NCBI GenBank assembly: GCA_041488355.1 | Contig: JBGPPC010000001.1 | Coordinates: 1,758-65,757 of the forward strand | Origin: Gammaproteobacteria bacterium | Lineage (GTDB): Bacteria > Pseudomonadota > Gammaproteobacteria > Burkholderiales > SHXO01 | Direction of reading: 5' to 3' | Length of the DNA stretch: 64,000 nucleotides | Part shown: piece by piece, positions 4,919 to 49,234 of the stretch | How positions within the stretch are numbered: position 1 is the first letter of the stretch | Layout: each line of letters starts with the position of its first letter | Notes under the pieces: generated by a model | Databases searched by the model: none | What the model was told of the DNA's origin: nothing | Seen by the model: only the letters and a program-made list of their open reading frames with translations | Program-made: the position numbers and the translations under genes

Positions 4919-7543
<2,625 letters not shown>

Positions 7544-10200: not shown

Positions 10201-10206
10201 TCGTGC

Positions 10207-10229
10207 GCCGCCCGCCCATCACGGGCGGC
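10207..10229 (+). terminator. Stem-loop after the HemD-like gene
   Basis: GCCGCCCG-CCCATCA-CGGGCGGC, 7 nt after the stop codon. The U-tract is weak. Confidence 0.35.
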
Positions 10230-10234
10230 TCGTT

Positions 10235-11731: not shown

Positions 11732-12170
11732 CCTTGCGCGCACTCTCCCGATGCTGAATCTCGCGCTGGGATAAGCGGCTGTATCTACTGTGGCTTTTTA
11801 CTTGTCTGCCGCATGGTGAGATTGCTTCTCTACACGGATCGATTCAGTTCAGAATCGGCGCTATACATATAAGCAAGACTGGCAAGATCGGCTCGGTTAA
11901 TAGTCGCAGCCCCGATACCCGCGCCTTCCTGCCCTGCCCGTCTCGCTGTGGCATTCGTGCTCAGTTTAGGCTCAGCAATCGGTCGGTCAATCGATCGTTG
12001 CGTCTGAACCAACTACGAGCGGCGGTGGCAAGGAGCGCGGGTAACGAACGCGCAACTTCGGTTGCCGCGATAGGAACGCAGACGGTTAGTGCGGCGTCGC
12101 AGTACCCCCGCCGAGTTTGCGGTGCCGTTTGCGGCCTGCGAATGATGCGTCAGCCAGGAGGATGAATGAA

Positions 12171-13046: not shown

Positions 13047-13245
13047 TAGCCTAGTGGCTTCGGTGGGCGGGAGCCGATCGCGGTCCCCGGGAGCAAGGCA
13101 GGTGTGAAATGTTCAGGGCATGGCACGTTGTGGGGGTCAATTGCGCAGCAGCGATCGCGAGCGCGGGATTGCTCCACTTCCTGCTGTTTTCGATTACGAG
13201 CAGCCGTTCGTCTAGGGCGCCAGCAACTGGTTGTGCGGCGGTCTG

Positions 13246-31775: not shown

Positions 31776-32684
31776 ATGTCCATGGATCGGTTTGAAGCAA
31801 TGGCCGTTCTGTTGGCCGTTGTCGAGGCCGGGAGCCTTTCGGCTGCGGGGCGAAAGCTGGGAATGCCGCTGGCCACGGTGAGTCGCAAAGTCTCGGAACT
31901 CGAAATTCACGTCAAGGCGCGGCTTCTAAGTCGGTCGACCCGACAACTCACGTTGACCGATGCGGGACGCGACTATGTCGCGGCCTGCAAGCGCATCCTC
32001 GAGGACGTAAACGACGCGGAGCGCGCCGCATCCGGTGAATACAGTGCGCCCAAAGGCGATCTCATCATCACGACTCCGATCGTGTTCGGTCGCTTGCACG
32101 TCCTGCCGGTCACAACTGAGTTTCTCAAAGCTTACCCAGAGGTCAATGTGCGCCTCGTACTGGGTGATCGGATCGTCAATCTCCTGGAAGACCATATCGA
32201 TCTCGCAGTTCGCATCGGCGACCTTCCCGACAGCAGCTTGATTGCAATGCGCGTGGGCATGATCCGGCATGTCGTATGTGGCAGTCCGAATTATTTTGCG
32301 GAGCGTAGCGCGCCGAAATCGCCCAGTGAACTCAGCGCGCATCAGTGCGTCACTTTCGCGACGCTGATGTCGCCGGATTCTTGGACCTTCAAAGTGAATG
32401 GGGTCGATGTGTCCGTGCCGATTCACTCGCGGCTCATCGTTAACACCGCGGAGGCCGCCATCGACGCCGCAATTTCCGGCGCTGGCGTGACGCGTGTGTT
32501 GTCGTACCAGATCGAAGATGCCAGGCGGGCCGATTTGTTGGAAGTGACGCTCCGAGACTTCGAGCCCGCACCCATCCCCGTCAGTCTCGTCTACACGAGC
32601 CAGGGGCGATTGCCCCTGAAGTTGCGAGCGTTTCTTGACTTTGCTGCCCCCCGTTTGCGAGAGCGGATGAATATGGAAGTGTGA
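31776..32684 (+). CDS. LysR family transcriptional regulator
   Basis: HTH ([38 protein letters not shown]) followed by a LysR substrate-binding domain. It is divergent from the AhpD-like gene. Confidence 0.92.
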
Positions 32685-32826
32685 AAGAGGGGGTGATCGC
32701 CAAGTTAACGCCTGCAAAGGTCAGTCGGGGTGCAAGACCACGACCAACGCGTGCAAAGGCCAGAACGCGTGCAAAGGCGAAGGCTTCACGCTCTACAACG
32801 TTTGCGACCGCCACGGCCGTTGGTAA
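32671..32826 (+). pseudogene. 5'-truncated small Cys-rich peptide gene (CKG-repeat, 6-Cys type)
   Basis: The open frame reads ..[40 protein letters not shown]. It has no start codon or signal peptide, and its 5' part is overlapped by the LysR gene end. Confidence 0.5.
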
Positions 32827-33025
32827 ATGGTAAGCGCTCTTCCCCCGATCGCCGGGGGAGGGAGCGAATCTTGATCCGCTCGTGATAGCCGCGTGAGCTT
32901 TTGCCGCAACAATCCGCACCGTTCGGGTCGACAAGGCTGCCGTGGAGGCAAGTCCAGCTGCAACCCGGACGGACCGTTTCCCGCTGCCAGGGTCGGTCCA
33001 ACTCTCATGTTCAGGAGGTCTATCC

Positions 33026-33238
33026 ATGGAGATGAACCAGAGGCTGGCCGGAATGGCGATCGCCGCTGCGGCCGCGGCGCTGTTCATGGCCGGCTGCAGC
33101 TCGACGGGTACCAGCACTGTCCAGGCCGACAGTTCGGGTACGGTCAAGGTCAAGTGCTACGGCGCCAACGCGTGCAAGGGGCACGGCTTCGTCTCGTTGA
33201 CCGAGCAGGCATGCCTCGAGCACTTTGGCCGCGCCTGA
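33026..33238 (+). CDS. Small Cys-containing lipoprotein (70 aa) related to the CKG-repeat peptide
   Basis: AGGAGG lies 7 nt upstream. The lipobox-like signal is AAALFMAGC. The mature part is ..VKVKCYGANACKGHGFVSLTEQACLEHFGRA. Confidence 0.65.
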   Translation: MEMNQRLAGMAIAAAAAALFMAGCSSTGTSTVQADSSGTVKVKCYGANACKGHGFVSLTEQACLEHFGRA

Positions 33239-33250
33239 TGTTTGGTTTCC

Positions 33251-33300
33251 ACGGGCGGTGCGGTGCTTTGGTCTCCGTGCTCTGGTGCCGCCCGTTTCTT
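33251..33300 (+). terminator. Stem-loop with T-run after the small lipoprotein gene
   Basis: ACGGGCGG (33251-33258) pairs with CCGCCCGT (33288-33295) and is followed by TTCTT. The loop is long, which lowers confidence. Confidence 0.35.
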
Positions 33301-33333
33301 CCTCCCTCAACCTGTCTGTGAAAGGAAACTTGT

Positions 33334-33633
33334 ATGAACAGCAATGACCGCATCATCCGTAACGCTTTCGCCAGCCTGGTCACCGCCGGCGCGCTCGCAT
33401 TCGCAGCCAACGGGATCGCCGCCGATACCGACCACAGCAAAGAAGAGAAGTGTGCAGGCATCGTAAAGGCCACCAAGAACGACTGCGCCACCAGCAAGAA
33501 CCAGTGCCATGGGCACGTCACCCAGGATCGCACGGCCGAAGGCTGGATCTACGTGCCCAAGGGCCTGTGCGAGAAGATCTCCGGCGCACATCTGAGCGAG
33601 GCGAGCGACCCGACGCCCGGCGTCAAGAACTAA
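33334..33633 (+). CDS. DUF2282-type secreted 4-Cys protein (second, orphan bufferin-like precursor)
   Basis: 99 aa with signal peptide ..[11 protein letters not shown]. The core is [25 protein letters not shown]...[12 protein letters not shown], with the same C-x10-C-x6-C-x20-C spacing as the copy at 46235. Confidence 0.8.
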
Positions 33634-33652: not shown

Positions 33653-33700
33653 CCCCCACCCTCTCCCTCCCCCGCTGGCGGGGGAGGGAGAGGGTGGGGG
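33653..33700. repeat. GC-rich palindromic (REP-like) element, perfect copy
   Basis: CCCCCACCCTCTCCCTCCCCC-GCTGGC-GGGGGAGGGAGAGGGTGGGGG has perfect 21-nt arms. It lies 20 nt after the DUF2282 stop codon and probably acts as a terminator. Confidence 0.85.
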
Positions 33701-33730: not shown

Positions 33731-34240
33731 ATGACACGCAAAGCATTTATCGTCGCGGCGATGCTGTGGCTGTTCGCAGCTGCCGGCGCGCAGGCTCAGA
33801 CTCAAACGATGGATATCAAGGTGCTGACATTGGAAGGCGCACGGACCGTCATCGCCGGCGCGTTCGAAGAAGCACGGCGTGTCAAAGCGCCGGGTGGCGC
33901 CATTGCGGTCGTGGACGAGGGTGGCCACATCCTTGCGGTGGAGCGCTGGGATAATACATTCCCGGCGGCGGCCCAGATTTCCATCGGCAAAGCGCGCACC
34001 GCTGCGCTGTTCCGCAAGCAGACCAAGGCTTTCGAGGATGCCATCAACAACGGCCGGTTCGCCATGACCGCTCTGCCAGACACGGTGCTGACGCCGCTTC
34101 AAGGTGGTCTGCCCATCGTGATCGATGGGAAAGTGGTGGGCGCGGTAGGCATGAGCGGCGCCGCCAGTGCGCAGCAGGACGAGGAGCTGGCCATGGCCGG
34201 CATCAAGGCCCTGCAAGAAACGGTGGGAGCGGAAAAATGA
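33731..34240 (+). CDS. GlcG/HbpS-like (DUF336) haem-binding protein, secreted
   Basis: 169 aa with a signal peptide. GGAIAVVDEGGHILAVERWD...QISIGKARTAALF...GGLPIVIDGKVVGAVGMSG is the GlcG signature pattern. Confidence 0.8.
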   Translation: MTRKAFIVAAMLWLFAAAGAQAQTQTMDIKVLTLEGARTVIAGAFEEARRVKAPGGAIAVVDEGGHILAVERWDNTFPAAAQISIGKARTAALFRKQTKAFEDAINNGRFAMTALPDTVLTPLQGGLPIVIDGKVVGAVGMSGAASAQQDEELAMAGIKALQETVGAEK

Positions 34241-35874: not shown

Positions 35875-35910
35875 ATTGAGTCCGTCACCGGAGGCGGCGC
35901 ACGCCGGGTC

Positions 35911-38900
35911 TCAATGGTGCTGCAACACCTCGCGCAGTGTTGTGAGCAGCCTCTGCGCCGTGTAGGGCTTGGGGAGGAATCCGGCGACCGGCAGGCCCGA
36001 AAACTCCGGCGCGTTCCCACTCGCATGCAAGCCGCTGCAGACGACGACTCGGACCTCGGGATTGAGCTTCTGCAGCGCGCGTATGGTTGCTGCGCCATCC
36101 ATGTAGGGCATCATCCAGTCGGTGAGCACGATGTCCATTACGTTGCCCAGCCGCGCATACTCGGCCAGCGCCTCGGTTCCATCCTGCGCAGTCGTCACAC
36201 GGTATCCGTGCGCTTCGAGCGTGGTGCGCGTCACCTCCAGGACGGAAGCCTCGTCGTCCACCACCAGCACATGCTCGCCGTGGCCCTCGGGGAGCTCGCT
36301 GCGCGGCTCGGTGTCGCTCACCTCGGCTGATGCCAAGGCGGGCAGGTGGATCTCGAATCTCGATCCGCGGCCCGGCTCGCTCCAGACGTTCACGAATCCG
36401 CCGTGGCTGCGGACGATCCCGGCGACGATGGACAGGCCCAGCCCGGTGCCCTTGCCGATCTCCTTGGTGGTGAAGAACGGCTCGAACACGCGCCCGATCA
36501 GCTGAGGCGCGATGCCCGCACCGGTGTCGGACACTGACACCAACACGTAACGGCCGGGCACAGCATCCGGATACAAGCGGGCATAGTGTTCGTCGACGCT
36601 GAAGTTCTGCGCCGAGAATCGGAGCGTCCCGCCGTGGGGCATCGCATCGCGCGCGTTGAGCGCGAGGTTCAGCAGCACTTGGTGCAACTGGGTCGGATCG
36701 CCTGCCACCGGCCAGATCGGCGCCGGGCTGTCGATCTGGATCTCGATCGCGCGCGGGAACGTCTGGCGGGCGATCTGCCCGATCTCTTCCAGCAGGTGGC
36801 GCGGATCCAGCGTCAACCGCTTGCCCTCCACGCCACGCGCGAAGGCCAGCACTTGGCTGGCGATCTCTGCGCCGCGCCGAGCATTGACCTGGATCATGTC
36901 CAACAGCTGCGGGTTCATCTGCGCATGCCGGTTCCCCTGCAGCGTATCGGCGGCGAGGATGATCGGCGTGAGGATGTTGTTCAGGTCGTGCGCGATGCCG
37001 CCGGCTAGCGTGCCGATGCTCTCCATGCGCTGGGCGCGCAGGAAGTGCTCCTCCATGCGCTTCTTCTCGGTAATGTCCGTGTTGATCATGAGCACGGACG
37101 CGGGCTGGCCCGTCGCGGATCGCACTAGCGTCCAGCGGCTCTGCACGATGACATCCTCGCCCCCGCGGGTGCGCTGGTTGATTTCTCCGGTCCATTCGCC
37201 GCGCTGCAGCACGCTGCGGGTGGCCTCCTCGTTGCGGTCCGATCCCCCATCGATGATTACCACCTCTGGCAGCGGACGGCCGAGCGCCTGGTGCGCCGGC
37301 CACCCATAGAGGCGCTCCGCGCCCTTGTTCCAATACGTAACGCGGTCTTCCAGATCGCAAACGAAGATCGCGTCACCGGCCTTGTCCAGCAACATGGCCT
37401 GGTCGCGGACTTGCTGCTCCGCCCGCTTGCGCTCCGCCACCTCCTGTTCCATGTCGACGTACAGCCTCGCGTTCTCGATCGAGACCGCGATGGTCGACGA
37501 CAAGATCTGAATTATCTCCAGCCGCTTCGGCGTGAAGGCGCCGGCGGTGAGGTCGTTCTCCAGAAACAGAATCGCGGTGAGCTTGCCCTGGTTGAGGATA
37601 GGGACACAGAGGATCGACTTGGCGCGTTTACCGACGACATAGGGATCGCGGGCGAAGCGCTCATCGTGCTCCGCGTCGTCGATGACGACCGCTTGGCAGG
37701 TCCGGCGCACGTAGTTGACGATGCCACCGGAGAGGCGCTCGCTCGATTCCACCGGGATCGACTGCAGGACCCGGGCACCGTCCTCGTTCGCGGCGCCTTC
37801 GGCCTCGATCACCCATTGCCCGTTCTTCTCCAGCACCAGAGCGCCACGCGAGGCGCCTGCGCTTTCCAGCACGGTTCTCATTAGGCTCTGCAGCAGCTTT
37901 TCCAGGACGATCTCACGCGAGATCGCCTGAGCTGCCTTCAGCACAGCGGTGATGTCGAGCGCGCTCGATTGCGCCCCCGCGGGTGGCAAGGAGGAGTCAG
38001 GAGAATCGGCGCTGAGGCCATATCGGGGCTGATCCTCCAACGGCTGCGGCTGTCCTTGGGCGTAGCGTTGCTCGAGCTGCCTGACCTTCGCCCAGGCACC
38101 CCACTGCCGGTAGCACTGGTAGGCCTGAGCGATAAATAGCGCAGCGATCTGGTCCTGCTTTCGATCCTCCCAGAAGCGGGCGTAGAGCTCGCTGGCCAAC
38201 CCCGCCTCGCGTGAACACTCCTGGCCCGCGGCGAACTCGATCGCGGCTTCGTATAGGCCCAGCGCCGCGGTAGCGTCGTCGTGGATGCGAGCGAGCTCTG
38301 CGGACACGATGAGATGCTGCGCGCGGAACAGGTGCGGGGAGTTCTCGGCCCAGTGCTGCAGGCGGAGCGCACAGTTTTCGAGAGTCGCGTCGGCCGCCTT
38401 GCGCTCGGCCTCAGGCAGTGAGCGATAGCAGGCCGTCAGCGAGAGCGCGTGATAGAACACCGTCAGCTCGTCCCAGATGGTGCCTGGAAAGTCCCGGATC
38501 ACGCGCCGGGCTTCGCAGGCGGCTGCGCACGCTCCCGGGTAATCGCCAAAGGTATAGAGCACGGCCAGCTTGGCGACGAAGTAGAACATCTCGAACAAGC
38601 TGTGGCCGCGATAGGTCTGGAGATAACGCTCCTCGTCGAAGCTGTCGTCGGTGAAGGTGGTGGGTCCGACTGTCAGCCCGTTCAAAGCTCGGCCCCACTG
38701 GAGAATCACCTGTTGTCCGCCCGCGAAGTGATGCATCTTCACGCGGTTCATGTAGTCGACGTTAGCCGGGTACGTCGCGCAGAATTTGTCCAGGTCGGAT
38801 CCCGAGAGCAGCGCGAACCAGATCTCGTTGAACAGCGCATACGCCGCATCGACGAACAGACCGGTTTCGTTTCCCAACCGGAACGCTTCGCGCGTGATCG

Positions 38901-41900
38901 GGATCGAGTCCTGCAGCGGCATGCGCCAGAGGCTGATGGCCCAGGCAAACATCATCAGCACGCGCGCGCGCAGAGCCCGGTGTTCGAAGCGCTCGTTCAC
39001 GCGGATTGCGAGCTTGCCGAAGGCGTAGGCGGCCTCGAAATCCTCCCGCACCGGACCCAGGAACATGGCGGCAAACAGCACATACGCGTAGGCCGAGTCC
39101 TCCATGTTCCCGTGCTCTAGGCACAGGCGCACCATGGTGGCGGTATTGAGGAGGGTCAGCGTCTTATCGCCCGACAAATAACAGGGCGTGTGAAGGTTGG
39201 CCAGCAGCTTGAGCACCGAGCGCTGCTCCGGGTCGCGCATCGGCGGCAGGTCGATTAGCGACTCGATGCTACGCACGCCGATCAGAGACTCGATGATTGC
39301 GACCTCGCGGTCGAGCGCATTCTGTCTCGCCTCCGGCGCGTCGGGGAAGGTAATGTCGAACAGCGCCAATCCGTCGTGGCCGGTGCGGATCGCATCTGCG
39401 TAGCGCGACAGGCTTTCGTATTGAAGCACCCGCAGATCGTGCACGCTGGCTCGGTCCAGGCGGCCGTGCGCTTGCTGCAGCAGCAGGCTAAAAGAATCCT
39501 GCGCCTCTCCGAACTGCCCGCAGAGATACTGGCATTCCGCGAGCTCGAGATATAGCGGGAACGCTATCGAGTAGTCACGGCTCCAGGGCTCTGCCGGCAG
39601 CAGCGCCCGCGCAGCGGTGAAATAGGCCAACGCCGCCGGAAAAGCTGCGGATGCTTTCGCCTTTCTCCCGGCGGCACACGCCATCTCTGCGATGCGCAGC
39701 CGCTCATCGGCAGCCTCGATCAGCTCGCTGCCGTAGCAGAGGTGGTTCACGATGTGGAACAGCTTGTCCTCGCGCTCCGGCACGCTGAGGTGCTGCCACA
39801 TCAGACGGCCGACTTGCAGATGCAGCTCGCGTTTGCGTTCGTCGGGGATGAGCGCATACGCGGCCTGCTGCACCCGGTCGTGGAGAAAGCGGTAGTGCTC
39901 CTCCGCAGTCTCTACCTGGGGCGCAATGTCCTCCTCATCTGGCTCCTGACGGCGGCCAAGCGGCAGGATCAATCCCTCGCGCAGCGCGGGCCACAGATCC
40001 TGAGCCGTCTCACGGACCGGCACTTGTCGGGCGAGAGCCAATGTCTTCAAGGCGAACTCGTTGCCCACGCACGCTGCCAGCATCAAGGCCTGGCGCGCTG
40101 CCTGCGGGAGCCGCTGAATGCGGCCCGCCATGAGTGTGACCACGTTGTCGGTCATGCCGGTCTGCTCGATGCGCTCGACATCGAAGCGCCACCGGCCCGC
40201 CGCATGATCGAACCTGACCAGCTGATCCTGATGCAGGGACTTCAGGAACTGAATGACGAACAGGGGATTGCCGTCGGTCTTCTGCTGCACCAACCGAGCC
40301 AGCGACTCGACATCGGCCGGCTCACAGCCCATGGCGTCGGCGATGAGACGGTTCAGCTCTTCAAGTGGCAGAGGCAGCACCTCGATGCGGCTCACGGCGT
40401 CTGGCCGCGTTCCAATCAGCGCTACCGTTTCCAGCAAAGGGTGGCCGGCGGGGACTTCGTTGTCGCGAAACGCCCCGACCACCAGCAGGTGCTGTATCGC
40501 CCGCTGCGACACAATCGTTTCGAGCAGCTTGAGCGTGGCAGGATCGGCCCACTGTAGGTCGTCCAGAAACAGCACCAGCGGATGGTGCTCCTGTGTGAAC
40601 ACCCGGACGAAGCGCTCGAACACCAGATCGAACCGGTTCTGCGACTCCATCGGCGGCAGCTTCGGCAGCGCCGGCTGGACTCCGATGATCAGCCCGACCT
40701 CAGGGATCACCTCAACGATGACCTGTCCGTTCGGACCGAGCGCCTCCAGCAACCTGATGCGCCAAGCGGCGACCTCGTCCTCACTCTGCGTGAGCAACTG
40801 CTCGATCAGCTGCTGGAAGGCCTGCGCTACGGAGCTGTAGGGCACGTTGCGCTTGAGCTGGTCGAACTTGCCGGTGATGAACAGGCCCCCCTCACGCGTG
40901 ACGGGCCCGCGTACCTCGTTCACCAGGGCCGATTTGCCCACGCCCGAGAACCCCGAAACGAGCAGCAGCTCGCACGTGCCCTGCCGGGCTCGCTCGCAGG
41001 CCGCCAGCAGTCGCGCGATCTCGGGCTCGCGGCCGTACAACCGCCGCGTCGGCTGCAGGCTGCCGCGCGCATCGTGGCGCCCGAGATCGAGCGTCTCAAT
41101 CGTGCCTGTGGAGCGCCACTGCGACAGGCAAGCCTGCAGGTCGGCCTCGAGTCCGTGCGCGCTCTGATAGCGCGCCTCGGCGGTCTTGGCCAGCAGCTTC
41201 ACGACAATGTTCGAGATGGGGAGGGGAATGGCGGGATCCACCTGGCCTGGCGGCGTCAGCGCTCGGGCGATGTGGGAATGCACCAGCTCCAGGGGATCGG
41301 TGGACAGGAACGGCGCCTTTCCCGTCAGCAGCTCATATAGCACCACGCCGAGCGAGTAGAGATCGGTCCGGTGATCGAGGGCTCGATTCACTCGTCCTGT
41401 CTGCTCGGGCGCCATATAGACGAGGGAGCCTTCCGTCGGTGGCGACTGACTCTCACCGCTCCCGTCCAGCGCAGGCTGGCGCGCCAGAGACAGGTCGATC
41501 AGCTGCACGCGCAGCGTCTCCGGCTCCACCAGAAAGCTGTCCGGGCTGACGTTGCAGTGGATGATTCCGGAATCGTGCAGCGCCCTCAACGTTCCCGTGA
41601 CGCGAATCGCGAGCTCCAGAAAGGTCGCCGGCTCGCGCGAGCCGATCCCTATCCAATTCCGGAGCGGCTCGCCGCCGCCGTCATCCAACACCAGCACAAG
41701 GCCGTGGAAGGATTTCTCCAGAGCGCTGCCGGTCGCACCGGAGCTTGGAGCCAACAGGTGCATCAACTCCCGTTCCCGCCGCAGCGAGGCTAGATCGGCA
41801 GCGGACGGAAATTCGCGCGGCAGTGCCTTGAGCAGGACCGGCCGATCGTCCTCGACGCGGCGGGCGCGGTAGACGACGTGCGTGGCCGTCCGCAGGACGA

Positions 41901-41955
41901 GCCGATCGACCCGATAGCCCGGTGGCAGCGCGAGCCTGTGCAGTGCTTCACTCAT
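35911..41955 (-). CDS. 2014-aa multidomain sensor: degenerate Ser/Thr-kinase-like domain, AAA_16/STAND P-loop NTPase, TPR-like region, GAF, PAS, HisKA/HATPase and receiver
   Basis: Motifs in order: kinase-like VLLKAL..IIHCNVSPDSF..LIDLS..YMAPEQ; Walker A GFSGVGKS and LVLFLDDLQWAD; GAF; PAS (DAIFVCDLEDRVTYWNKGAERLYGW); H-box GIAHDLNNILTPI; N/G boxes (LNARDAM, DTGAGI, GKGTGLGLS); receiver (VLVVDDE..VLTDWMMP..LPKPY). Confidence 0.9.
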   Translation of the reverse strand: MSEALHRLALPPGYRVDRLVLRTATHVVYRARRVEDDRPVLLKALPREFPSAADLASLRRERELMHLLAPSSGATGSALEKSFHGLVLVLDDGGGEPLRNWIGIGSREPATFLELAIRVTGTLRALHDSGIIHCNVSPDSFLVEPETLRVQLIDLSLARQPALDGSGESQSPPTEGSLVYMAPEQTGRVNRALDHRTDLYSLGVVLYELLTGKAPFLSTDPLELVHSHIARALTPPGQVDPAIPLPISNIVVKLLAKTAEARYQSAHGLEADLQACLSQWRSTGTIETLDLGRHDARGSLQPTRRLYGREPEIARLLAACERARQGTCELLLVSGFSGVGKSALVNEVRGPVTREGGLFITGKFDQLKRNVPYSSVAQAFQQLIEQLLTQSEDEVAAWRIRLLEALGPNGQVIVEVIPEVGLIIGVQPALPKLPPMESQNRFDLVFERFVRVFTQEHHPLVLFLDDLQWADPATLKLLETIVSQRAIQHLLVVGAFRDNEVPAGHPLLETVALIGTRPDAVSRIEVLPLPLEELNRLIADAMGCEPADVESLARLVQQKTDGNPLFVIQFLKSLHQDQLVRFDHAAGRWRFDVERIEQTGMTDNVVTLMAGRIQRLPQAARQALMLAACVGNEFALKTLALARQVPVRETAQDLWPALREGLILPLGRRQEPDEEDIAPQVETAEEHYRFLHDRVQQAAYALIPDERKRELHLQVGRLMWQHLSVPEREDKLFHIVNHLCYGSELIEAADERLRIAEMACAAGRKAKASAAFPAALAYFTAARALLPAEPWSRDYSIAFPLYLELAECQYLCGQFGEAQDSFSLLLQQAHGRLDRASVHDLRVLQYESLSRYADAIRTGHDGLALFDITFPDAPEARQNALDREVAIIESLIGVRSIESLIDLPPMRDPEQRSVLKLLANLHTPCYLSGDKTLTLLNTATMVRLCLEHGNMEDSAYAYVLFAAMFLGPVREDFEAAYAFGKLAIRVNERFEHRALRARVLMMFAWAISLWRMPLQDSIPITREAFRLGNETGLFVDAAYALFNEIWFALLSGSDLDKFCATYPANVDYMNRVKMHHFAGGQQVILQWGRALNGLTVGPTTFTDDSFDEERYLQTYRGHSLFEMFYFVAKLAVLYTFGDYPGACAAACEARRVIRDFPGTIWDELTVFYHALSLTACYRSLPEAERKAADATLENCALRLQHWAENSPHLFRAQHLIVSAELARIHDDATAALGLYEAAIEFAAGQECSREAGLASELYARFWEDRKQDQIAALFIAQAYQCYRQWGAWAKVRQLEQRYAQGQPQPLEDQPRYGLSADSPDSSLPPAGAQSSALDITAVLKAAQAISREIVLEKLLQSLMRTVLESAGASRGALVLEKNGQWVIEAEGAANEDGARVLQSIPVESSERLSGGIVNYVRRTCQAVVIDDAEHDERFARDPYVVGKRAKSILCVPILNQGKLTAILFLENDLTAGAFTPKRLEIIQILSSTIAVSIENARLYVDMEQEVAERKRAEQQVRDQAMLLDKAGDAIFVCDLEDRVTYWNKGAERLYGWPAHQALGRPLPEVVIIDGGSDRNEEATRSVLQRGEWTGEINQRTRGGEDVIVQSRWTLVRSATGQPASVLMINTDITEKKRMEEHFLRAQRMESIGTLAGGIAHDLNNILTPIILAADTLQGNRHAQMNPQLLDMIQVNARRGAEIASQVLAFARGVEGKRLTLDPRHLLEEIGQIARQTFPRAIEIQIDSPAPIWPVAGDPTQLHQVLLNLALNARDAMPHGGTLRFSAQNFSVDEHYARLYPDAVPGRYVLVSVSDTGAGIAPQLIGRVFEPFFTTKEIGKGTGLGLSIVAGIVRSHGGFVNVWSEPGRGSRFEIHLPALASAEVSDTEPRSELPEGHGEHVLVVDDEASVLEVTRTTLEAHGYRVTTAQDGTEALAEYARLGNVMDIVLTDWMMPYMDGAATIRALQKLNPEVRVVVCSGLHASGNAPEFSGLPVAGFLPKPYTAQRLLTTLREVLQHH

Positions 41956-43258
41956 CGAGCGGTACCCAGCGCGTGCCGTCGAATCGGACCATGCGCGTTT
42001 GCTCGATCGGCAGATAGTCCGTCGGGCTGGTGTTGATCTTGATCCCCGGCAGCAGCATCGGCAGCTCGAGGTCCTTCAGATTCGCCGCCTGGCGCATGAC
42101 GTTCTCGCGGGTGAGATCGCTGCCGCAGCGCTCGAGGACATGGACCATGAGCTGCGCCGCCGAATAGCCGTATACATTTTGGATCTCGTCGACGTCGCCG
42201 TCCGCGAAGTACTGCGCCATCCAGGCCAGGTAATCCCGCACGACGCGGTCGTCCTTCCAGCGTGGGTCCGTTGGGCTTTTCCAATAGGCATCGGCGATCA
42301 ATCCCACGGATTTGCTCAAACCTGCCGGCTTGAGCACCGTGGCGATGGACGCAACCGCGCTCGGAACGAAATGCTGCGGCCTCCAGCCCACATCATAAAC
42401 CTTGCGTATCGCTTGAGAGGCAAACCTGGCGGTGGAGAAATTGAAGAACGTGTCCGCGCCCGAGGCCTGGAGCGAAATGATCTGCGAGTCCACCGTCGGA
42501 TCGCTGGTCTCGTAGGAAGCGGCCGCGACGATCATCTTGTCGGCCCTCTCGCCGAGCAGATCCTTCAGGGCCATCAAGTACTCCGTCCCGTAGTCCGTGT
42601 TTTCGTAGAGGACGGCGATCTTGGCGTTGGGGCGATGTTTCAACAGGTACCCCACCTCGTCGGCGATGTTGGTCCTTTGGTTCGGGGCCAGCGCCATGGT
42701 CCAGGGGAAGTTCTGCGGGTCGTGCCATTTCATGCCGGTGCTGGCGATGAACAGCTGGGGCACCTTGTTGGCGTTGAGATACTTGTGCACGGCCGCGTTT
42801 GGACTGGTACCGAGCGAGCTGAATAGGAGCAGCACCTGCTCTTGCTCGACCAACCTACGCGTATGCTCCACCGTCTTCGGGGGGCTGTATCCGTCGTCGA
42901 GCGAGATCAGCTTGATCCGCCGCCCGTTGATCCCCCCTTCGGCATTTACTTTGGCGAAGTAGGCCGCTTCCGCCTTGCCGATCGTTCCGTAGGGTGAGGC
43001 CGGACCGCTGTAGGCCATCGTCTGGCCGATCTTGATTTCCGAATCGGTTACACCCGGACCGTAATTATTTGCCGCCAGCACCGGCGCAAAACAGATACCG
43101 ACGCCGAGCACCGTCGCTCCCAGCACGGCCGGGAATCTCTCCCGGAATACTGTCCTCGTCGTCTCCGGTGTTCTCTCGGCGGCGGCTCGTCGGGCGGGAT
43201 CCTGGCTGTCCGGGCTCGGCATGGGACACTCAGCGCGTTGGGGGTGACCGGATCTCAT
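41948..43258 (-). CDS. LivK-type (branched-chain amino acid family) periplasmic binding protein, with no cognate transporter genes nearby
   Basis: The signal/anchor is VLGATVLGVGICFAPVLAANNYGP, followed by IKIGQTMAYSGPASPYGTIGKAEAAYFAKVNAEGGINGRRIKL. Its stop overlaps the sensor start (ATGAGTGA). The true start may be ATG 43222. Confidence 0.85.
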   Translation of the reverse strand: MRSGHPQRAECPMPSPDSQDPARRAAAERTPETTRTVFRERFPAVLGATVLGVGICFAPVLAANNYGPGVTDSEIKIGQTMAYSGPASPYGTIGKAEAAYFAKVNAEGGINGRRIKLISLDDGYSPPKTVEHTRRLVEQEQVLLLFSSLGTSPNAAVHKYLNANKVPQLFIASTGMKWHDPQNFPWTMALAPNQRTNIADEVGYLLKHRPNAKIAVLYENTDYGTEYLMALKDLLGERADKMIVAAASYETSDPTVDSQIISLQASGADTFFNFSTARFASQAIRKVYDVGWRPQHFVPSAVASIATVLKPAGLSKSVGLIADAYWKSPTDPRWKDDRVVRDYLAWMAQYFADGDVDEIQNVYGYSAAQLMVHVLERCGSDLTRENVMRQAANLKDLELPMLLPGIKINTSPTDYLPIEQTRMVRFDGTRWVPLDE

Positions 43259-43340
43259 TCAGCCAGCCGATGCGTTGGCAGCCGCGGCCGGTTTGATGGC
43301 CGATCGCAATACTGTCGATCCTGGTTAGAAAACCTTACGC

Positions 43341-43364
43341 AGTGCGTGAGACTTGCGTGACACT
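43341..43364 (-). promoter_or_regulatory. Tandem 11-bp direct repeat upstream of the binding-protein/sensor operon
   Basis: In operon orientation the sequence is AGTGTCACGCA AGTCTCACGCA CT, about 85-105 nt upstream of ATG 43258. Helical-turn spacing is typical of winged-helix response-regulator sites. Confidence 0.3.
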
Positions 43365-43469
43365 TGGCTGGCAAAGTGTACGCGTGTGCGGTGGATAACC
43401 GCCAGCCAACATAGTCTCCTCCCCTTCTGGATGGGCCGCGGGTCGTGGGATCCCCCCATCCACCTTCTT

Positions 43470-43682
43470 TCATGGCGATGTACGGAACCGAGCCGCGGAT
43501 GGACTCATGCTTCCAGCGGAGGTTTCACCCTCCTCATCCAATGTGACAATCGCGTTGAGGGCGGGGTTACGGCTGCGGATGCGTTCGAGATGTCCGTCCA
43601 CCACTTCGCATGCTGAAAGATTGCGCTGCCGGATGGCCGCGGCAAGCTCGTATACGAACGGGTAGACGGGCTTCTGCATCAC
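43470..43682 (-). pseudogene. N-terminal fragment of an amidase-signature enzyme
   Basis: ELAAAIRQRNLSACEVVDGHLERIRSRNPALNAIVTLDEEG matches the N-terminus of amidase (GatA-like) family proteins. Similarity then stops, and only ~70 codons are present. Confidence 0.5.
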
Positions 43683-43864
43683 GAACCTCTGCTCGTGTCA
43701 TCGCGCCACCGCCAGCCCAGCCGCTACGGTGAGCGGCAGCGCCCCTTTGCTGGGTCGCGACAGGGTGGGTCTGACCCTGCGGGAGTATACGCTCGCGTCC
43801 GGATGTGATGCCCTGACGCAGCGCCGCTCACCTACTTCTTTCTTTATCTCGTCGTGAAGGTTCC

Positions 43865-44122
43865 GTGATAACCGGCGCCGATACTGCGTCTCGTACGATC
43901 ACTTCAACCCAACAGGGGACGAACATGACGACGGCGACCTTCGCTAGCAACGTGATACCCCACCCCGCTCGGGGCGGCAGCCGGTCCGGCGCGGCATTGC
44001 GCTCTTTGATGCAATCCTGGGAGCAGGAAATACCGGCAGACGAGGAGGAAAGCGAGACCGAATTGATGGTGCTTCTGTCCGGGATGGTGAGCCCGGAGAT
44101 CAGCTTGCTAGGCGACGCATGA
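43865..44122 (+). CDS. Hypothetical small acidic protein (weak call)
   Basis: 85-aa ORF with an internal ATG at MTTATF. No motif recognised and no Cys. Confidence 0.25.
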   Translation: MITGADTASRTITSTQQGTNMTTATFASNVIPHPARGGSRSGAALRSLMQSWEQEIPADEEESETELMVLLSGMVSPEISLLGDA

Positions 44123-44334
44123 CGGGGCAACCATGGGCGGCGTGCAGGTGCACGCCCCCGCCCCTCTCCCGCAAGGGGAGCGGGGTGCCTCTCCCGAGGG
44201 AGAAAGCAGGTGTAGGCCACGTGCGATGCGCCCAGCAAACCGTTAGCCCCGCGTGACCATTTTGTGATTTCTCCCGGCCAGACTCCACTTGTCATCAGAG
44301 ACGCATCGCGTCCGCCAGATGAGAGGAGCCGAGG

Positions 44335-45207
44335 ATGGAGAACGCCCCCCGTCGTCCCGCTAGAGCCGAGCTGCCGCCCCGTGCCGGCATCGGGCTGCGC
44401 GCGCCGCACTATCGCGAGATCCTCGAGACCCGGCCGGATATCGGTTGGGTCGAGGTCCACAGCGAAAACTACTTCGGCCGCGGCGGGCAGCCCCTTCACT
44501 ATCTGGAGCGCGCACGCTGCCACTATCCGCTAAGCCTGCACGGCGTAGGGTTGTCGCTGGGTTCGGCCGACGGCTTGCGTCAAGCGCACTTGGTGCAGCT
44601 CAAGGCACTGGTCGAGCGCTTCGAACCAGCGCTCGTCTCCGACCATCTGTGCTGGGGCGCGATCGGCGAACGGCATCTGAACGACCTGCTGCCGCTGCCC
44701 TGTACGGAGGCAACGCTCGATCTGGTCTGCGTCAATGTGGTGCGAGCGCAGGAGTTTCTGGGTCGGCAAATCCTCGTCGAGAACGTCTCCAGCTACCTTC
44801 AATTTTCCGACTCTACTATCCCTGAGTGGGAGTTCGTGGGCGAGGTCGCCCGGCGTACCGGCTGCGGTCTGCTGCTCGATATCAATAATATTTATGTCAG
44901 CGCCATCAATCACGGCTTCGACGCGCTGCGTTATCTCGATGCGATTCCGGCGCACGCGGTGCGCGAGATTCATCTCGCAGGCTTCGACAGCAACGGCATG
45001 TGCCTCATCGACACGCATGGCAAACCGGTTGCCGGTCCGGTATGGAACCTCTACGGCGAGGCGCTGACCCGGCTCGGCCCGGTCCCTACTTTGATCGAAT
45101 GGGATACGGACTTGCCTCCGCTCGCGGTCCTGCTGCAAGAGGCCGCCAAGGCTCAGGAGATCTTGAATCAGTGGACACTGGAGACGACCCATGCTCTCGC
45201 TGCGTGA
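44335..45207 (+). CDS. bufB: DUF692 / MNIO-family (multinuclear non-haem iron oxidative) peptide-modifying enzyme
   Basis: 290 aa with a TIM-barrel DUF692 pattern and metal-ligand motifs HSENYF, HGVGLSLG, SDHLCW, ENVSSY, LLDINNIYV and EIHLAGF. GAGGAG lies upstream. Confidence 0.9.
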   Translation: MENAPRRPARAELPPRAGIGLRAPHYREILETRPDIGWVEVHSENYFGRGGQPLHYLERARCHYPLSLHGVGLSLGSADGLRQAHLVQLKALVERFEPALVSDHLCWGAIGERHLNDLLPLPCTEATLDLVCVNVVRAQEFLGRQILVENVSSYLQFSDSTIPEWEFVGEVARRTGCGLLLDINNIYVSAINHGFDALRYLDAIPAHAVREIHLAGFDSNGMCLIDTHGKPVAGPVWNLYGEALTRLGPVPTLIEWDTDLPPLAVLLQEAAKAQEILNQWTLETTHALAA

Positions 45208-45979
45208 GCAGCAGGCGGGCTTCGCGGCCGCTCTTTTCAATCCTGCCGCCGGCCGGTCGGCGCCAGGCATTCGCGCCGATGGCATCAGCCCCGCGGTGAG
45301 GCTCGGCTTTTACCGCACCAACGTATTCGAGAACTACCGCAAAGCCCTGGCAGCGACGTATCCCGCGGTGGAGAAACTGGTAGGGAGTGGGTTCTTCGCC
45401 GGCTTGGCTGAAGAGTACATCCGTCGCTATCCCTCGCACTCGGGCGATGTGGGCCGACACGGCGAGCAGTTTGGAGAATTCCTGCGCCGGCACGCTTGTG
45501 CACGCGAGTTGCCTTATCTCTCGGATGTCGCGCGCCTCGAATGGAACATCGACGAAAGTTTCAACGAAGCGGACCACGCGCCGCTTGCGCTCGAGCGGCT
45601 CGCCAACGTTCCAGAGGGGCAGCATGAGCGGCTGCGCTTCCTCCTCGCTCCGTCCTGCCGCCTGATGAGCTCGCTCTTCCCAGTGCATCGCATTTGGCAG
45701 ATGTGTCAGCCGGATTCCGACGGTGACGGCAACGTCGATCTAGGCCAGGGTGGCGCTGACTTATTGGTTCGCCGCCACGGATTTCACGTGATGGTTGAGA
45801 CCGTGCAGCCTAGCGAGTTCGCAATGCTGGTAGCGCTGTCTACCGGTCACGATTTCGCCGAAGCCTACGACATTGCGCACGGTGTGGACGGAGGCTTCGA
45901 TCCGGACACGTTTCTCCAGAAGCACGTGCTGTCCGGAGTCTTGGTAGATTTCATTCTGCCGGCTGACGCGTGGGTGTAG
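45191..45979 (+). CDS. bufC: DUF2063 protein (MNIO partner / precursor-recognition subunit)
   Basis: 262 aa. LGFYRTNVFENYRKALAATYPAVEKLVG..FFAGLAEEYIRRYPS..LSDVARLEWNIDESF is typical of DUF2063. It overlaps the DUF692 gene by 17 nt. Confidence 0.88.
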   Translation: MLSLREQQAGFAAALFNPAAGRSAPGIRADGISPAVRLGFYRTNVFENYRKALAATYPAVEKLVGSGFFAGLAEEYIRRYPSHSGDVGRHGEQFGEFLRRHACARELPYLSDVARLEWNIDESFNEADHAPLALERLANVPEGQHERLRFLLAPSCRLMSSLFPVHRIWQMCQPDSDGDGNVDLGQGGADLLVRRHGFHVMVETVQPSEFAMLVALSTGHDFAEAYDIAHGVDGGFDPDTFLQKHVLSGVLVDFILPADAWV

Positions 45980-46234
45980 TGGACGACCATTCTCGCGTTG
46001 CTCCGGTGTCGGAGCGCTCCATTTATGCTTCGACTCCGCGATGAAGCCGCTACGCTCAGCACGAACCGGGCGGGGTCGGCGGGTGATTTCACTGCTGTTT
46101 CTCCTCTCCTACCACCCGTGAGCAAAGCTTTAGCCTCCCGTGAGGTTTGCGTGATGTTTGATCTCGATACTGCACGCATCCGGAAAGCGACAAGCGCCCC
46201 GGTGATTCCCCAATCCAACCTTACGGAGACTGTC

Positions 46235-46525
46235 ATGAGCAAGACCAATTCGATCATCAATACCGCCTTCGCCAGCTTGTTGGCTGTGGGCTTGGCCGCC
46301 GGCGCCTCGCAGGCACTCGCCGCCAAGGGCGACAACGAGAAATGCGCCGGCATCGTCAAGGCCGGCAAGAACGATTGCGGCACCAGCAAGAACGCGTGCG
46401 CGGGCCAGGTGAACATGGACAAAGATGCCGAAGCCTGGATCTACGTCCCCAAAGGCACGTGCGAGCGCATCGTCGGAGGCCACATCCAGACCTCGTCCGA
46501 CGCCAAGCACGGCGGCAAGAGCTGA
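46235..46525 (+). CDS. bufA: DUF2282-type Sec-exported 4-Cys precursor (bufferin-like)
   Basis: GGAG lies 7 nt upstream. Signal peptide is MSKTNSIINTAFASLLAVGLAAGASQALA. The core is [25 protein letters not shown]...WIYVPKGTCERIVGG. The 175-aa track ORF from 45998 is an upstream over-extension. Confidence 0.88.
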   Translation: MSKTNSIINTAFASLLAVGLAAGASQALAAKGDNEKCAGIVKAGKNDCGTSKNACAGQVNMDKDAEAWIYVPKGTCERIVGGHIQTSSDAKHGGKS

Positions 46526-46692
46526 TCAGGAAAACAATCGGGACGGTCCGTCGCTTTGCATCGGACTCGCCCGTCTTACCCGCCCGGACGTCCGGCAGGA
46601 AGCGCAGCCGCCGGCACACGCAGCGTAAGCCACCCGGCCCCTCGCTTCCGCAGACGCCCGAGCCTCGTTCAAGGGAAATCGAAATGGAAATG

Positions 46693-47166
46693 ACCGTCAG
46701 TTCCACGCGCGCGCTGAATGCCGGGCAGCTGGTCCTTGCCGCAGCTCGTCGCCTCATCACGATCGCCGAGCAGTACGCGGCGCCCGTCCTCGACTTGATT
46801 ATCCGGATCTGGGTGGCCAAGGCGTTCTTTTTGTCCGGGCTGACCAAGATCCAGAGCTGGGACAGCACGCTGGCGCTGTTCGGGAACGAATATGCAGTGC
46901 CGCTGCTGCCGCCCGAGCTCGCGGCATATATGGGCACGTTCACGGAGCTGTTCTTCCCGGTGCTGCTGGTGCTGGGGCTCGGCACGCGCTTCGCGGCCGG
47001 CGTGCTGTTCGTGTTCAACATCATCGCCGTGATCTCCTACCCTGACCTGGGTGAGGTCGGGCTGAGGGACCATCAGTACTGGGGGCTGTTGCTGCTGATC
47101 CCGCTGCTGCACGGGCCGGGAAAAATCTCCGTCGATCACTTCGTCCGCCGCCGCTTCTGGAATTGA
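46693..47166 (+). CDS. DoxX family membrane protein
   Basis: 157 aa with four hydrophobic spans. VLDLIIRIWVAKAFFLSGLTKIQSW...LGLGTRFAAG is the DoxX pattern. It follows the precursor gene. Confidence 0.85.
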   Translation, partial: TVSSTRALNAGQLVLAAARRLITIAEQYAAPVLDLIIRIWVAKAFFLSGLTKIQSWDSTLALFGNEYAVPLLPPELAAYMGTFTELFFPVLLVLGLGTRFAAGVLFVFNIIAVISYPDLGEVGLRDHQYWGLLLLIPLLHGPGKISVDHFVRRRFWN

Positions 47167-47191
47167 GCCGCGCAAAACAAGGAAAGCCCAT

Positions 47192-48031
47192 ATGAACGCA
47201 GTCAACACAATGGATCGCACGGCCATGACTCTGCGAGTTCTCGAAGGTCAGCGGGCGGTGGTTACCGGCGCGAACTCTGGGATCGGAGAGGGCGTCGCGA
47301 AGGGTCTGGCCGACGCCGGTGCAAAGGTCATCGTCAACTACGTCAGCGCACCGGAGCAGGCCGAGCGGGTCGTCAACGAAATACGCCAGGCGGGCGGCGA
47401 GGCCATCGCCATCCGCGCCGACGTCAGCAAAGAGGAACAGGTCCAAGCCATGTTCCGGCAGGCGATCGAAGCCTGGGGCAGCATCGACATCCTGGTGAAC
47501 AACGCCGGGCTGCAACGCGATGCGCCGCTGCACGAGATGAGCCTGAAGGACTGGCAATTCGTGCTGGACGTGAACCTCACCGGCCAGTTTCTGTGCGCCC
47601 GTGAGGCGGTGCGCGAGTTCCGCCGCCGCGGGGTCCAGCCCGAGCTGTCGGCCGCTGCCGGCAAGATCGTCTGCATGTCCTCGGTGCACGACATGATCCC
47701 CTGGTCAGGCCATGCGAACTACGCGGCGTCGAAGGGCGGTGTGTCGATGCTGATGAAGACCATGGCGCAGGAGCTGGCGATGCACAAGATTCGCGTCAAC
47801 GCCGTGTCCCCGGGTGCGATCAAGACTCCGATCAACACCAGCGCGTGGGACACACCGGAAGCCGAACGGGAACTGCTCAAGCTCATCCCCTATTACCGGG
47901 TGGGCGAAACGCACGACATCGCACGCGCGACGGTGTGGCTGGCTTCGGACCTGTCGGACTACGTGAACGGCGCCACGCTGTATGTGGACGGCGGGATGAC
48001 GCTGTTCCCGGAATTCCGCGGGAATGGCTAA
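47192..48031 (+). CDS. SDR family oxidoreductase (glucose-1-dehydrogenase-like)
   Basis: TGANSGIG cofactor motif, NNAG, and a catalytic Ser (MSSVH) with YAASK. It begins 26 nt after the DoxX stop. Confidence 0.9.
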   Translation: MNAVNTMDRTAMTLRVLEGQRAVVTGANSGIGEGVAKGLADAGAKVIVNYVSAPEQAERVVNEIRQAGGEAIAIRADVSKEEQVQAMFRQAIEAWGSIDILVNNAGLQRDAPLHEMSLKDWQFVLDVNLTGQFLCAREAVREFRRRGVQPELSAAAGKIVCMSSVHDMIPWSGHANYAASKGGVSMLMKTMAQELAMHKIRVNAVSPGAIKTPINTSAWDTPEAERELLKLIPYYRVGETHDIARATVWLASDLSDYVNGATLYVDGGMTLFPEFRGNG

Positions 48032-48040
48032 CGAAAGGCC

Positions 48041-48156
48041 GTGACTCGTGGTTCGTGACCGGTAACCCCCCCGACCCTCCCCTTGAAGGGAAGGGAGCGC
48101 CGAGAGCTCACGTCACGAATTGCGAATCACGAGTAACGAATCACGAATCACGCCGG
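48041..48156. repeat. Heptamer-based inverted-repeat element, copy 1
   Basis: The left arm has phased ACTCGTG GTTCGTG. The centre is a GC hairpin (CCCTCCCCTTGAAGGGAAGGGAG). The right arm has phased CACGAAT TGCGAAT CACGAGT AACGAAT CACGAAT CACGCC and ends at the ribosome-binding site of the next gene. Confidence 0.8.
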
Positions 48157-48163
48157 AGGAACC

Positions 48164-49183
48164 ATGTTCCGACTTCGCATCCGCCCCGACCAGTTCATGC
48201 TTCTGGTCGTCGCACTGTCCCTTTCGCTGCTGGCCAGCACCGTGTTTGCCGGAGCGCGCGAGATCCGCGGCTTCGCACTTACGGTCTCCAATCTGGACAG
48301 CGCCGTCGCCTTTTACCAGGAGGCGCTCGGTTTCAAGAAGGTCGGCGAACGCATCGTCGCCGACCGCAACTACGACTATCTAACCGGCGTGTTCGGCACG
48401 CGCGTTCGCAGTGCGACACTACAGCTCGGAGACGAGCGGATCGAACTCGACCAGTACCTCGCACCCGGCGGTCAGCCCATCCCCGTCGACAGCCGCTCGA
48501 ACGATCTCTGGTTCCAGCACTTCGCTGTCGTCGTGAGCGACATGGAGCGGGCCTACGAGCATCTGCGCGCGTTTCCGATCCAGAGCATCTCCAGCGCGCC
48601 GCAGACCATTCCCGAATCGAACAAAGCCGCGGCCGGCATCAAAGCGTACAAGTTCAAGGATCCCGACGGTCATCCGCTCGAGCTGCTTTGGTTCCCGGCT
48701 GACAAGGGCAAGGCCAAGTGGCAAAGCGCCGATGGCCGGCTGTTCCTGGGTATCGACCACTCGGCGATCGGCATCTCCAGCACGGAGCGCAGCACCGCGT
48801 TCTACCGAGACCTGATCGGCCTCACCGTCGCCGGCGGCACCACTAATACCGGCATGACTCAAGAGCAGCTCGACAACGCGTTCGGCGCAGTGGTGCGCAT
48901 CACCGGACTGCGACCCGACCGCTCCGAGAGTCCTGGACTCGAGTTCCTGCAGTACGTGAACCCGCCAGGCGGGCGGCCATCGCCAATCGCGTTGCGGCCC
49001 AACGACCTGGTTCTTACTCGAACCGTGATTCAAGTGGACGACCTCGATGGCTTGGTAACGAAGCTGCAAGGCGGCGGCGTGACCTTCATTTCGCCCCAGG
49101 TCGTCTCAGTAAGCGGTGAGCCGTGGACCAAGGCGCTGATGGTGAAAGACCCGGACGGCCACGCGGTGCTGCTGGTTGAATGA
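48164..49183 (+). CDS. Secreted two-domain VOC (glyoxalase/bleomycin-resistance/dioxygenase) family protein
   Basis: 339 aa with a signal peptide and two VOC modules (GFALTVSNLDSAVAFYQEALGF and GIDHSAIGISSTERSTAFYRDLIGL). Confidence 0.8.
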   Translation: MFRLRIRPDQFMLLVVALSLSLLASTVFAGAREIRGFALTVSNLDSAVAFYQEALGFKKVGERIVADRNYDYLTGVFGTRVRSATLQLGDERIELDQYLAPGGQPIPVDSRSNDLWFQHFAVVVSDMERAYEHLRAFPIQSISSAPQTIPESNKAAAGIKAYKFKDPDGHPLELLWFPADKGKAKWQSADGRLFLGIDHSAIGISSTERSTAFYRDLIGLTVAGGTTNTGMTQEQLDNAFGAVVRITGLRPDRSESPGLEFLQYVNPPGGRPSPIALRPNDLVLTRTVIQVDDLDGLVTKLQGGGVTFISPQVVSVSGEPWTKALMVKDPDGHAVLLVE

Positions 49184-49234
49184 CAGCGCGCGAACGGCAT
49201 TTTAGAAGCCTGCTAAACCAATCAGGAGCGGCAG

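Follow-up and report, generated by a model that had tools for sequence, protein, structure and literature searches.

Bufferins are Sec-exported, MNIO-modified, copper-binding peptides and rank among the largest families of RiPPs, peptides that are made on the ribosome and modified after translation. We analysed the bufferin genes in one 64,000-nt window of contig JBGPPC010000001.1, from an uncultured Burkholderiales-type bacterium; the window is the whole stretch of DNA under study, and statements on gene content refer to these 64 kb. Upstream of an MNIO operon lies a nest of three extra bufferin precursor genes, labelled (a) (32707-32829), (b) (33026-33238) and (d) (33334-33633). Judged from comparison with related loci, (a) is a dead stub, (b) is a recent deletion allele with three of six Cys, and (d) is intact. 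All four elements that a sequence-only reading had claimed for this region are present, at or near the places where it had put them. The nest is a known bufferin system with new variants. Stand-alone and tandem precursors, lipoprotein forms of Buf2 and the question of one MNIO pair for several precursors have already been described (PMC12452194, PMC11626156), whereas the decay series of (a), the segregating 6-Cys/3-Cys allele pair of (b) and the same contraction in other lineages are new here, as are a conserved bufA1-HbpS-like-SGL module and an MNIO typing that argues against maturation of (b) by the single enzyme pair of the window.

Profile scores refer to NF050166 (NCBIfam, BufA2/Buf2; cut-off 60 bits), PF10048 (Pfam DUF2282; cut-off 22.4) and NF050167 (MNIO_BufB; cut-off 310). 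The relatives compared are L005 (ENA ERZ25039557), L006 (JGI 3300055271) and L107 (ENA ERZ25039492, a contig of 194 kb), together with further loci named where they are needed. The nest and its left neighbour comprise the following features.

31776..32684 (+): LysR-family regulator gene, with Pfam HTH_1 and LysR_substrate over its full length; left partner of the rearrangement junction, abutting (a)
32707..32829 (+): (a), pseudo-bufA2, last 40 codons and stop; NF050166 match without a start codon
33026..33238 (+): (b), gene for a bufA2 lipoprotein in its 57-nt deletion form; product of 70 aa that has the lipobox Cys and, in the core, CysI, a hybrid II/V Cys and CysVI
33171..33180 (+): deletion junction with a single CGTGCAAGGG, from the alignment of the window with L006 and L005
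33334..33633 (+): (d), intact bufA1 (DUF2282) precursor gene; 99 aa, 4 Cys; PF10048 68.7 bits

The BufA2 genes (a) and (b)

The product of (b) matches NF050166 with an E value of 1.6e-12 and 47.4 bits, under the cut-off; its N-terminus is hydrophobic and carries the lipobox LFMAGC, as judged only by eye and with a regular expression; AGGAGG (33013-33018) stands 7 nt ahead of its ATG. It has 155 homologues at E <= 0.01, the nearest of which are 88-90 aa long with six Cys. L006, which comes from another sample, matches the window over ~880 nt save for one single-nucleotide polymorphism and a 57-nt indel, and encodes the 89-aa, six-Cys protein P0002, an intact allele of (b) that scores 87.3 bits on NF050166. 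The intact allele carries CGTGCAAGGG once in the CysII unit and again, 57 nt further on, in the CysV unit, and the junction in the window falls inside this 10-nt direct repeat; the deletion takes out QAECKTAMNACKGQNSCKG and restores an in-frame NACKG unit. Either recombination or slippage between these two CGTGCAAGGG copies removed the 57 nt in this strain. The sequence-only reading had taken (b) for a lipoprotein shortened by deletion of CKG units, with direct repeats as the substrate; the L006 allele and the 10-nt repeat bear out both points, and only the derivation from (a) fails, since (b) has its own 89-aa allele. The two genes are paralogues, ~52% identical. The repeated character of the region is also evident in the 15-nt unit AACGCGTGCAAAGGC, which occurs exactly at 32746 and 32764 and with two mismatches at 32707 (AACGCCTGCAAAGGT) and 33167 (AACGCGTGCAAGGGG); at up to two mismatches it gives five matches in the window, against 0.27 expected.

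Assembly collapse was considered as the source of the deletion and rejected, because the repeat is only 10 nt long and the short allele recurs across JGI, Logan and NCBI assemblies. The 70-aa allele was found on at least nine contigs from these sources, in two haplotypes (LFMAGC and LFVAGC), and comparison of (b) with L005 gave an omega (dN/dS) of 0.18. Intact 89-aa alleles are present in L006 and L107, both with the LysR-side rearrangement described below. The deletion is a real and recent population polymorphism.

The closest known relatives of (a) and (b) are the Buf2/BufA2 bufferins (BUF_6/12Cys; NF050166), such as Caulobacter vibrioides CCNA_03001, with which (b) appears to share the signal-peptide-plus-core layout, and (a) and (b) both share the motif KC-x-G...NxCKG...CKG-x-GF...C. 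Being a lipoprotein also puts (b) among known forms, as ~16% of Buf2 precursors are lipoproteins (PMC12452194). The window genes differ in holding only five (a) or three (b) of the six Cys and in scoring under the NF050166 cut-off, which their intact counterparts pass; (a) moreover has neither start codon nor signal peptide, and neither gene adjoins a Buf2-type MNIO/DUF2063 pair. For the Buf2 peptide of C. vibrioides a disulfide between CysI and CysVI is probable, and -4 Da shifts at the four central Cys were assigned to thiooxazoles (PMC11626156). On that pattern the 3-Cys allele could form at most one thiooxazole instead of four, and may thus be a variant of reduced or altered capacity. AlphaFold2 models of the 70-aa and 89-aa forms reached a mean pLDDT of 54 and 50, too low to judge folding, with the order strand-loop-strand-helix in both.

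The frame of (a), 32671-32826, translates as the sequence-only reading gave it and ends at a TAA (32827-32829). It matches NF050166 with an E value of 5.3e-13 and 49 bits, under the cut-off, and retains five of six Cys. No in-frame ATG, GTG or TTG was found in the frame from 32671 and no signal peptide in (a), and the end of the LysR gene (32684) runs into the 5' end of the frame. A search of relatives for an intact version, which had been proposed as a check, found an 83-aa orthologue in the same position in L005 (4503-4754), with a signal peptide, six Cys and 74.5 bits on NF050166, and a Buf2 operon with its MNIO beside the nest. DNA homology between the window and L005 begins abruptly at 32707, the first AACGCCTGCAAAGG unit (the first NACKG); 32671-32706 is open frame only, with no BufA2 homology. 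Upstream of this point the window carries the LysR gene, whereas L005 carries a PQQ dehydrogenase gene and the Buf2 operon. The earlier description of (a) as a truncated 6-Cys CKG gene therefore stands on the L005 orthologue and the NF050166 match, with its extent reduced to the homologous 32707-32829.

The (a)-type paralogue forms a small subfamily of its own (17 clusters, ~83 aa). In the window remnant, Gly replaces the Glu of QSECK that is found in the listed members of this subfamily (Asp in one of them); apart from this change, (a) differs from L005 by five synonymous changes. L006, near-identical to the window, has the same stub. In L107 it is wholly gone, and a degenerate piece of the 3' end of a window-type LysR gene is left at the junction. 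With an intact gene in L005, only a stub in the window and in L006, and nothing left in L107, (a) is a pseudogene remnant in progressive decay. A rearrangement brought the LysR gene up against this BufA2 paralogue and cut the latter at its first NACKG unit. Expression of (a) as a frameshift extension of LysR was also considered and was rejected, there being no slippery site and the product lacking a signal peptide. Relatives of (a) occur in other metagenomes (P0265, P0266 and P0253), and several (a)-type genes have frameshifted or altered C-termini; the paralogue seems prone to decay elsewhere too.

The contraction seen in (b) recurs. Among its 120 best homologues, six Cys are found in 105, three in seven and four in one (4 Cys). 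The 3-Cys forms occur in different signal-peptide lineages (P0018, P0073 and P0101/P0103/P0112), P0392 corresponds to the MNIO-adjacent precursors found in L021 and L022 but with the II-to-V stretch deleted, and among representatives at the 50% clustering level a profile built from the short forms picked out additional, diverse 3-Cys members. Because the short genes of L014 and L015 show a dS of 0.88 and an omega of 0.14, at least their clade is maintained by selection. Of ~75 precursors that adjoin Buf2-type MNIOs, 66 carry six Cys and a few carry 8-12, but no 3-Cys form is among them; neither of the two short forms with readable flanks has an MNIO gene immediately downstream. A published survey of Buf2 lists 6-Cys and 12-Cys forms only and no 3-Cys forms (PMC12452194). 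By the same comparisons the CKG array expands as well as contracts. MNIO-adjacent Buf2 precursors with 8 or 10-12 Cys were seen in L044, L055, L057, L074, L077 and L096, some in tandem with a 6-Cys copy.

The bufA1 module and the MNIO operon

Downstream of (d) lie two further genes, an insertion and the MNIO operon.

33731-34240 (+): secreted HbpS/GlcG-like gene; Pfam HbpS-like 108.6 bits
34237-35874 (+): SMP-30/gluconolactonase-like gene; Pfam SGL 113.6 bits; ATGA overlap with the HbpS-like gene
35905..43840 (-): 7.9-kb lineage-specific insertion; L005 and L107 lack it and show a 330-nt spacer in its place
44335-45207 (+): bufB (MNIO); NF050167 MNIO_BufB 393 bits against a cut-off of 310; EWDT
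45191-45979 (+): bufC (DUF2063); Pfam match
46235-46525 (+): bufA1 (DUF2282), operon copy; Pfam match; CAGQV after CysIII
46684-47166 (+): DoxX; Pfam match

The gene (d) had been proposed as a second DUF2282 precursor with the Cys spacing of the copy at 46235, and both its PF10048 score and its spacing (C-x10-C-x6-C-x20-C, identical in the two copies) agree with this. Like Buf1/BufA1 precursors (DUF2282, PF10048) of bufABCD operons, it has the DUF2282 domain, four Cys spaced as in the operon copy, and a signal peptide; it differs from them in lying outside the MNIO operon, ahead of the HbpS-like and SMP-30-like genes, and in reading CHGHV after CysIII. Orthologues of (d), 88% down to 51% identical, were found in L005, L011, L012, L013, L020 and L107, and in each of these six relative loci the HbpS/GlcG-like and then the SMP-30-like gene follow. 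The GlcG-like and SMP-30-like genes noted downstream earlier are thus confirmed by Pfam matches and synteny, and (d), which had been called an orphan, instead heads a bufA1-HbpS-like-SGL module. With a ribosome-binding site and an omega of 0.11-0.17 against close relatives, (d) is an intact BufA1 gene under purifying selection. Within the literature that was searched, no report links DUF2282 with HbpS-like and SMP-30-like genes. The L013 module has housekeeping genes around it and no MNIO within 10 kb.

All (d) orthologues read carry CHGHV where the operon copy has CAGQV, and the two extra His could serve as metal ligands. Carriers of the (d)-type CHGHV are window 33334-33633, L005:5313-5612, L011:1724-2020, L012:808-1101 and L013:10001-10270. 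Short C-terminal remnants of the SMP-30-like gene were observed just upstream of BufA2 in L007 (9613-9714) and L018 (700-834); they indicate, at the level of sequence, further independent deletions at the junction of the Buf2 operon and the bufA1 module.

The MNIO gene lies 10.7 kb downstream of (d) in the window and 2.9 kb downstream of it in L005 and L107. Two stretches of the window are collinear with L005, 32707-35904 with its 4635-7870 and 43841-49666 with its 8200-15214; L107 shows the same pattern. In both relatives the nest sits directly upstream of the MNIO-DUF2063-bufA1-DoxX operon, so that the gap of ~11 kb reported earlier, which is real here, is due to the lineage-specific 7.9-kb insertion. 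It encodes a 2014-aa Ser/Thr-kinase/AAA_16/GAF/PAS/HisKA/receiver hybrid and a binding protein of the Peripla_BP_6 type, besides an N-terminal fragment that is amidase-like (43470-43682, minus); its junctions show neither a tRNA nor an integrase nor a flanking repeat. Without the insertion, nest and operon would form one cluster.

On the other side of the nest, L005, L011 and L020 carry a Buf2 operon with a BufA2 lipoprotein gene and a Buf2-type MNIO gene, accompanied in L020 by a DUF2063 gene, and L005 thereby keeps both enzyme types beside the nest. Other relatives have the Buf2 operon at an HSP20...PCuAC-dacA-lipBA locus. The insertion and the LysR rearrangement have together broken both links of the nest, to the MNIO operon and to the Buf2-type operon. 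A metagenome scan with the L005 MNIO2 returned 80 loci, none of them from the window's samples, which the scan did not include; close MNIO2 orthologues (93-96% identical) came from other samples. Window 63271-64000 shares ~80% identity with L008 sequence that lies ~8 kb upstream of the Buf2 operon there, near genes for an extracytoplasmic function (ECF) sigma factor and HSP20. A Buf2 neighbourhood may lie just beyond the right end of the window.

The MNIO at 44335-45207 is the sole MNIO match in the window, where no Buf2-type MNIO/DUF2063 pair was found. In Cys-Lys (Buf2) MNIOs an Asp directly follows the catalytic Asp and is modelled in contact with the substrate Lys; this residue is Phe in Lys-Cys enzymes and is not conserved in DUF2282 enzymes (PMC13097082). 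Among Buf2-type enzymes we found ERDD in 104 of 106 matched proteins (77 of 88 places), and the solved structure 3BWW reads ERDF. EWDT is the reading in the window MNIO and in the orthologue of L005; of the Buf1-type copies, that in L049 has EWDSE and that in L069 EWDTD. Because it carries EWDT, not ERDD, the window MNIO suits (d) better than (b): by sequence type it belongs with the DUF2282 enzymes, as the natural partner of (d) and the 46235 copy and less likely of (b). Upstream of the MNIO gene, a 65-aa acidic, Cys-free open reading frame (ORF; 43925-44122) is kept in the window, L005 and L107 and has no Pfam or NCBIfam match.

The motif GTGATARCCG occurs exactly twice in the 64 kb, at 32882-32891 (GTGATAGCCG) upstream of (b) and at 43865-43874 upstream of the 65-aa ORF and MNIO operon, where it resembles an ECF-type promoter (GATAACC-N17-CGTA). 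At one mismatch it is not enriched (10 found, 6.5 expected), which leaves it a weak lead to co-regulation that has no statistical support.

Readings of the locus

We consider it probable that the region represents the upstream, precursor-rich arm of a composite bufferin locus, now in partial decay, in an uncultured Burkholderiales-type bacterium. On this account (d) would be exported and converted in trans into a thiooxazole copper binder by BufB/BufC (44335-45979), which match its DUF2282 type, and (b) would normally be the substrate of a Buf2-type (ERDD) enzyme encoded outside the window, if the genome still has one. Of two earlier suggestions, that the nest is what remains of a second locus without its enzymes fits (a) and (b) better, as the Buf2-type operon that flanks the nest in relatives is missing here; that one MNIO pair serves several precursors is plausible mainly for (d), the MNIO being of the DUF2282 type, and less so for (b). 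Several points weigh against the account as a whole. L006 and L107 have the LysR-side rearrangement too and still carry intact 89-aa alleles, so that (b) arguably remained useful after that event. A diverged 3-Cys clade is under purifying selection, so the short allele need not be defective. The specificity residue comes from a published model and is no proof that a DUF2282-type MNIO cannot modify CKG units, and the 64-kb view fits both loss and relocation of the Buf2-type maturase.

The wider claim that the pair at 44335-45979 matures all the dispersed precursors, the two BufA1 copies and the BufA2-type (b) alike, strikes us as rather unlikely. It draws on the lone MNIO in 64 kb, on the contiguity of nest and MNIO operon in L005 and L107 and on the shared GTGATARCCG motif, of which there are two hits only. 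Genomes with several precursors and one MNIO pair have also been reported, and the possibility was raised there; the modification of stand-alone precursors, and the enzyme responsible for it, are named there as an open question (PMC12452194). However, the window enzyme has EWDT and not the ERDD of most sampled Buf2-type MNIOs (PMC13097082), the MNIO-adjacent BufA2 precursors in our sample adjoined Buf2-type enzymes, and both enzyme types stand beside the nest in L005. In Legionella pneumophila subsp. fraseri and similar genomes, stand-alone or tandem precursors also outnumber maturases (PMC12452194), and as in the window several precursors fall to one MNIO pair, some of them not MNIO-adjacent; here, by contrast, the history can be traced through intact, truncated and deleted stages and points to loss of linkage, not designed dispersal.

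A tentative possibility, to which we give a little more room, is that the 70-aa allele of (b) works as a minimal bufferin, a disulfide clamping its one modifiable Cys, and is kept by selection instead of being a loss-of-function allele. The junction restores a native N-A-C-K-G unit in frame, the allele predominates among the haplogroup contigs in two haplotypes, the II-to-V contraction is also found in P0018, P0073, P0392 and the P0101/P0103/P0112 clade, all from other lineages, the L014/L015 short pair is diverged at low omega (dS 0.88, omega 0.14), and several diverse 3-Cys representatives remain at the 50% clustering level. Yet none of the ~75 MNIO-adjacent Buf2 precursors has the 3-Cys form, no MNIO directly follows either of the two short forms whose flanks could be read, the window deletion is too recent to show selection, and one thiooxazole would be unlikely to match the affinity of several heterocycles. 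That the whole nest, (d) included, is a non-functional relic is very improbable: (a) is dead, (b) damaged, no maturase adjoins them and the flanks of relatives show repeated deletions, but (d) keeps all four Cys, a ribosome-binding site, an omega of 0.11-0.17 and synteny down to 51% identity, and (b) retains its frame, lipobox and ribosome-binding site. The notion that the CKG similarity is a low-complexity coincidence and that (a) and (b) are not genes, which had been named as a ground for refuting the nest, is itself refuted and has next to no chance of being right; the sequences are indeed short, repetitive and rich in Cys, Lys and Gly, and both fall under the NCBIfam cut-off, but they match NF050166, their full-length orthologues and alleles lie above its cut-off (74.5 and 87.3 bits), synteny with L005, L006 and L107 holds position for position, and (b) has its 155 homologues at E <= 0.01.

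Repeated Cys units are also known from the EGKCG-repeat precursors (oxazolin, fontiphorin and gonophorin; PMC13097082), whose short units are likewise modified by related MNIOs; these differ from the CKG array in that their unit is Lys-Cys and not Cys-Lys, their enzymes are of the ERDF subtype (3BWW), and they have no folded, disulfide-clamped domain. At this locus the 6-Cys and 3-Cys alleles of one lipoprotein in near-identical DNA provide a natural test set, as do a BufA1 paralogue apart from its maturase and relatives in which both maturase types adjoin. Deletion between 10-nt repeats is a simple mutational route by which the number of metal-binding heterocycles could change, and the locus offers a case of repeat slippage reshaping bufferin peptides in nature, alongside the conserved partnership of bufA1 with HbpS-like and SMP-30-like genes. 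A broader proposal, which we find speculative and unlikely to hold in full, would make the CKG array a slippage hotspot that switches BufA2 between 6-Cys and 3-Cys forms (also 4-, 8- and 10-12-Cys forms), the 3-Cys products being an unrecognised class of minimal bufferins, selected and encoded away from maturase genes; separately, the bufA1(CHGHV)-HbpS-like-SMP-30 module could mark a DUF2282 function with no dedicated MNIO. Were the hotspot real, the window would have captured both alleles segregating in one natural population.

Hairpins and the leader of (b)

The spacers of the nest hold four further features.

32829..32877 (+): hairpin 3' of the (a) remnant, with the GGGGGAGGGAG motif; -25.3 kcal/mol, z -2.5
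32878..33025 (+): conserved leader of (b), presumed to hold its promoter; identity with L005 and L107 ~85-87%
33251..33295 (+): hairpin after (b) with GUUUCUU behind it, resembling a terminator or attenuator; -25.4 kcal/mol
33653..33700 (+): perfect 23-bp hairpin after (d); -59 kcal/mol, z -6.5

A sigma-70 scan found no consensus site in the leader of (b), a terminator scan gave only minus-strand sites inside genes, and an Rfam scan returned only spurious hairpin matches far under the gathering scores. The stem at 33251..33295 can also be drawn in L005, where both of its arms have changed. At 32838-32866 after (a) and at 33653-33700 after (d) stand GC-rich palindromes based on GGGGGAGGGAG; in both places L005 has a shorter or different hairpin, which suggests a small element like the repetitive extragenic palindromic (REP) type.

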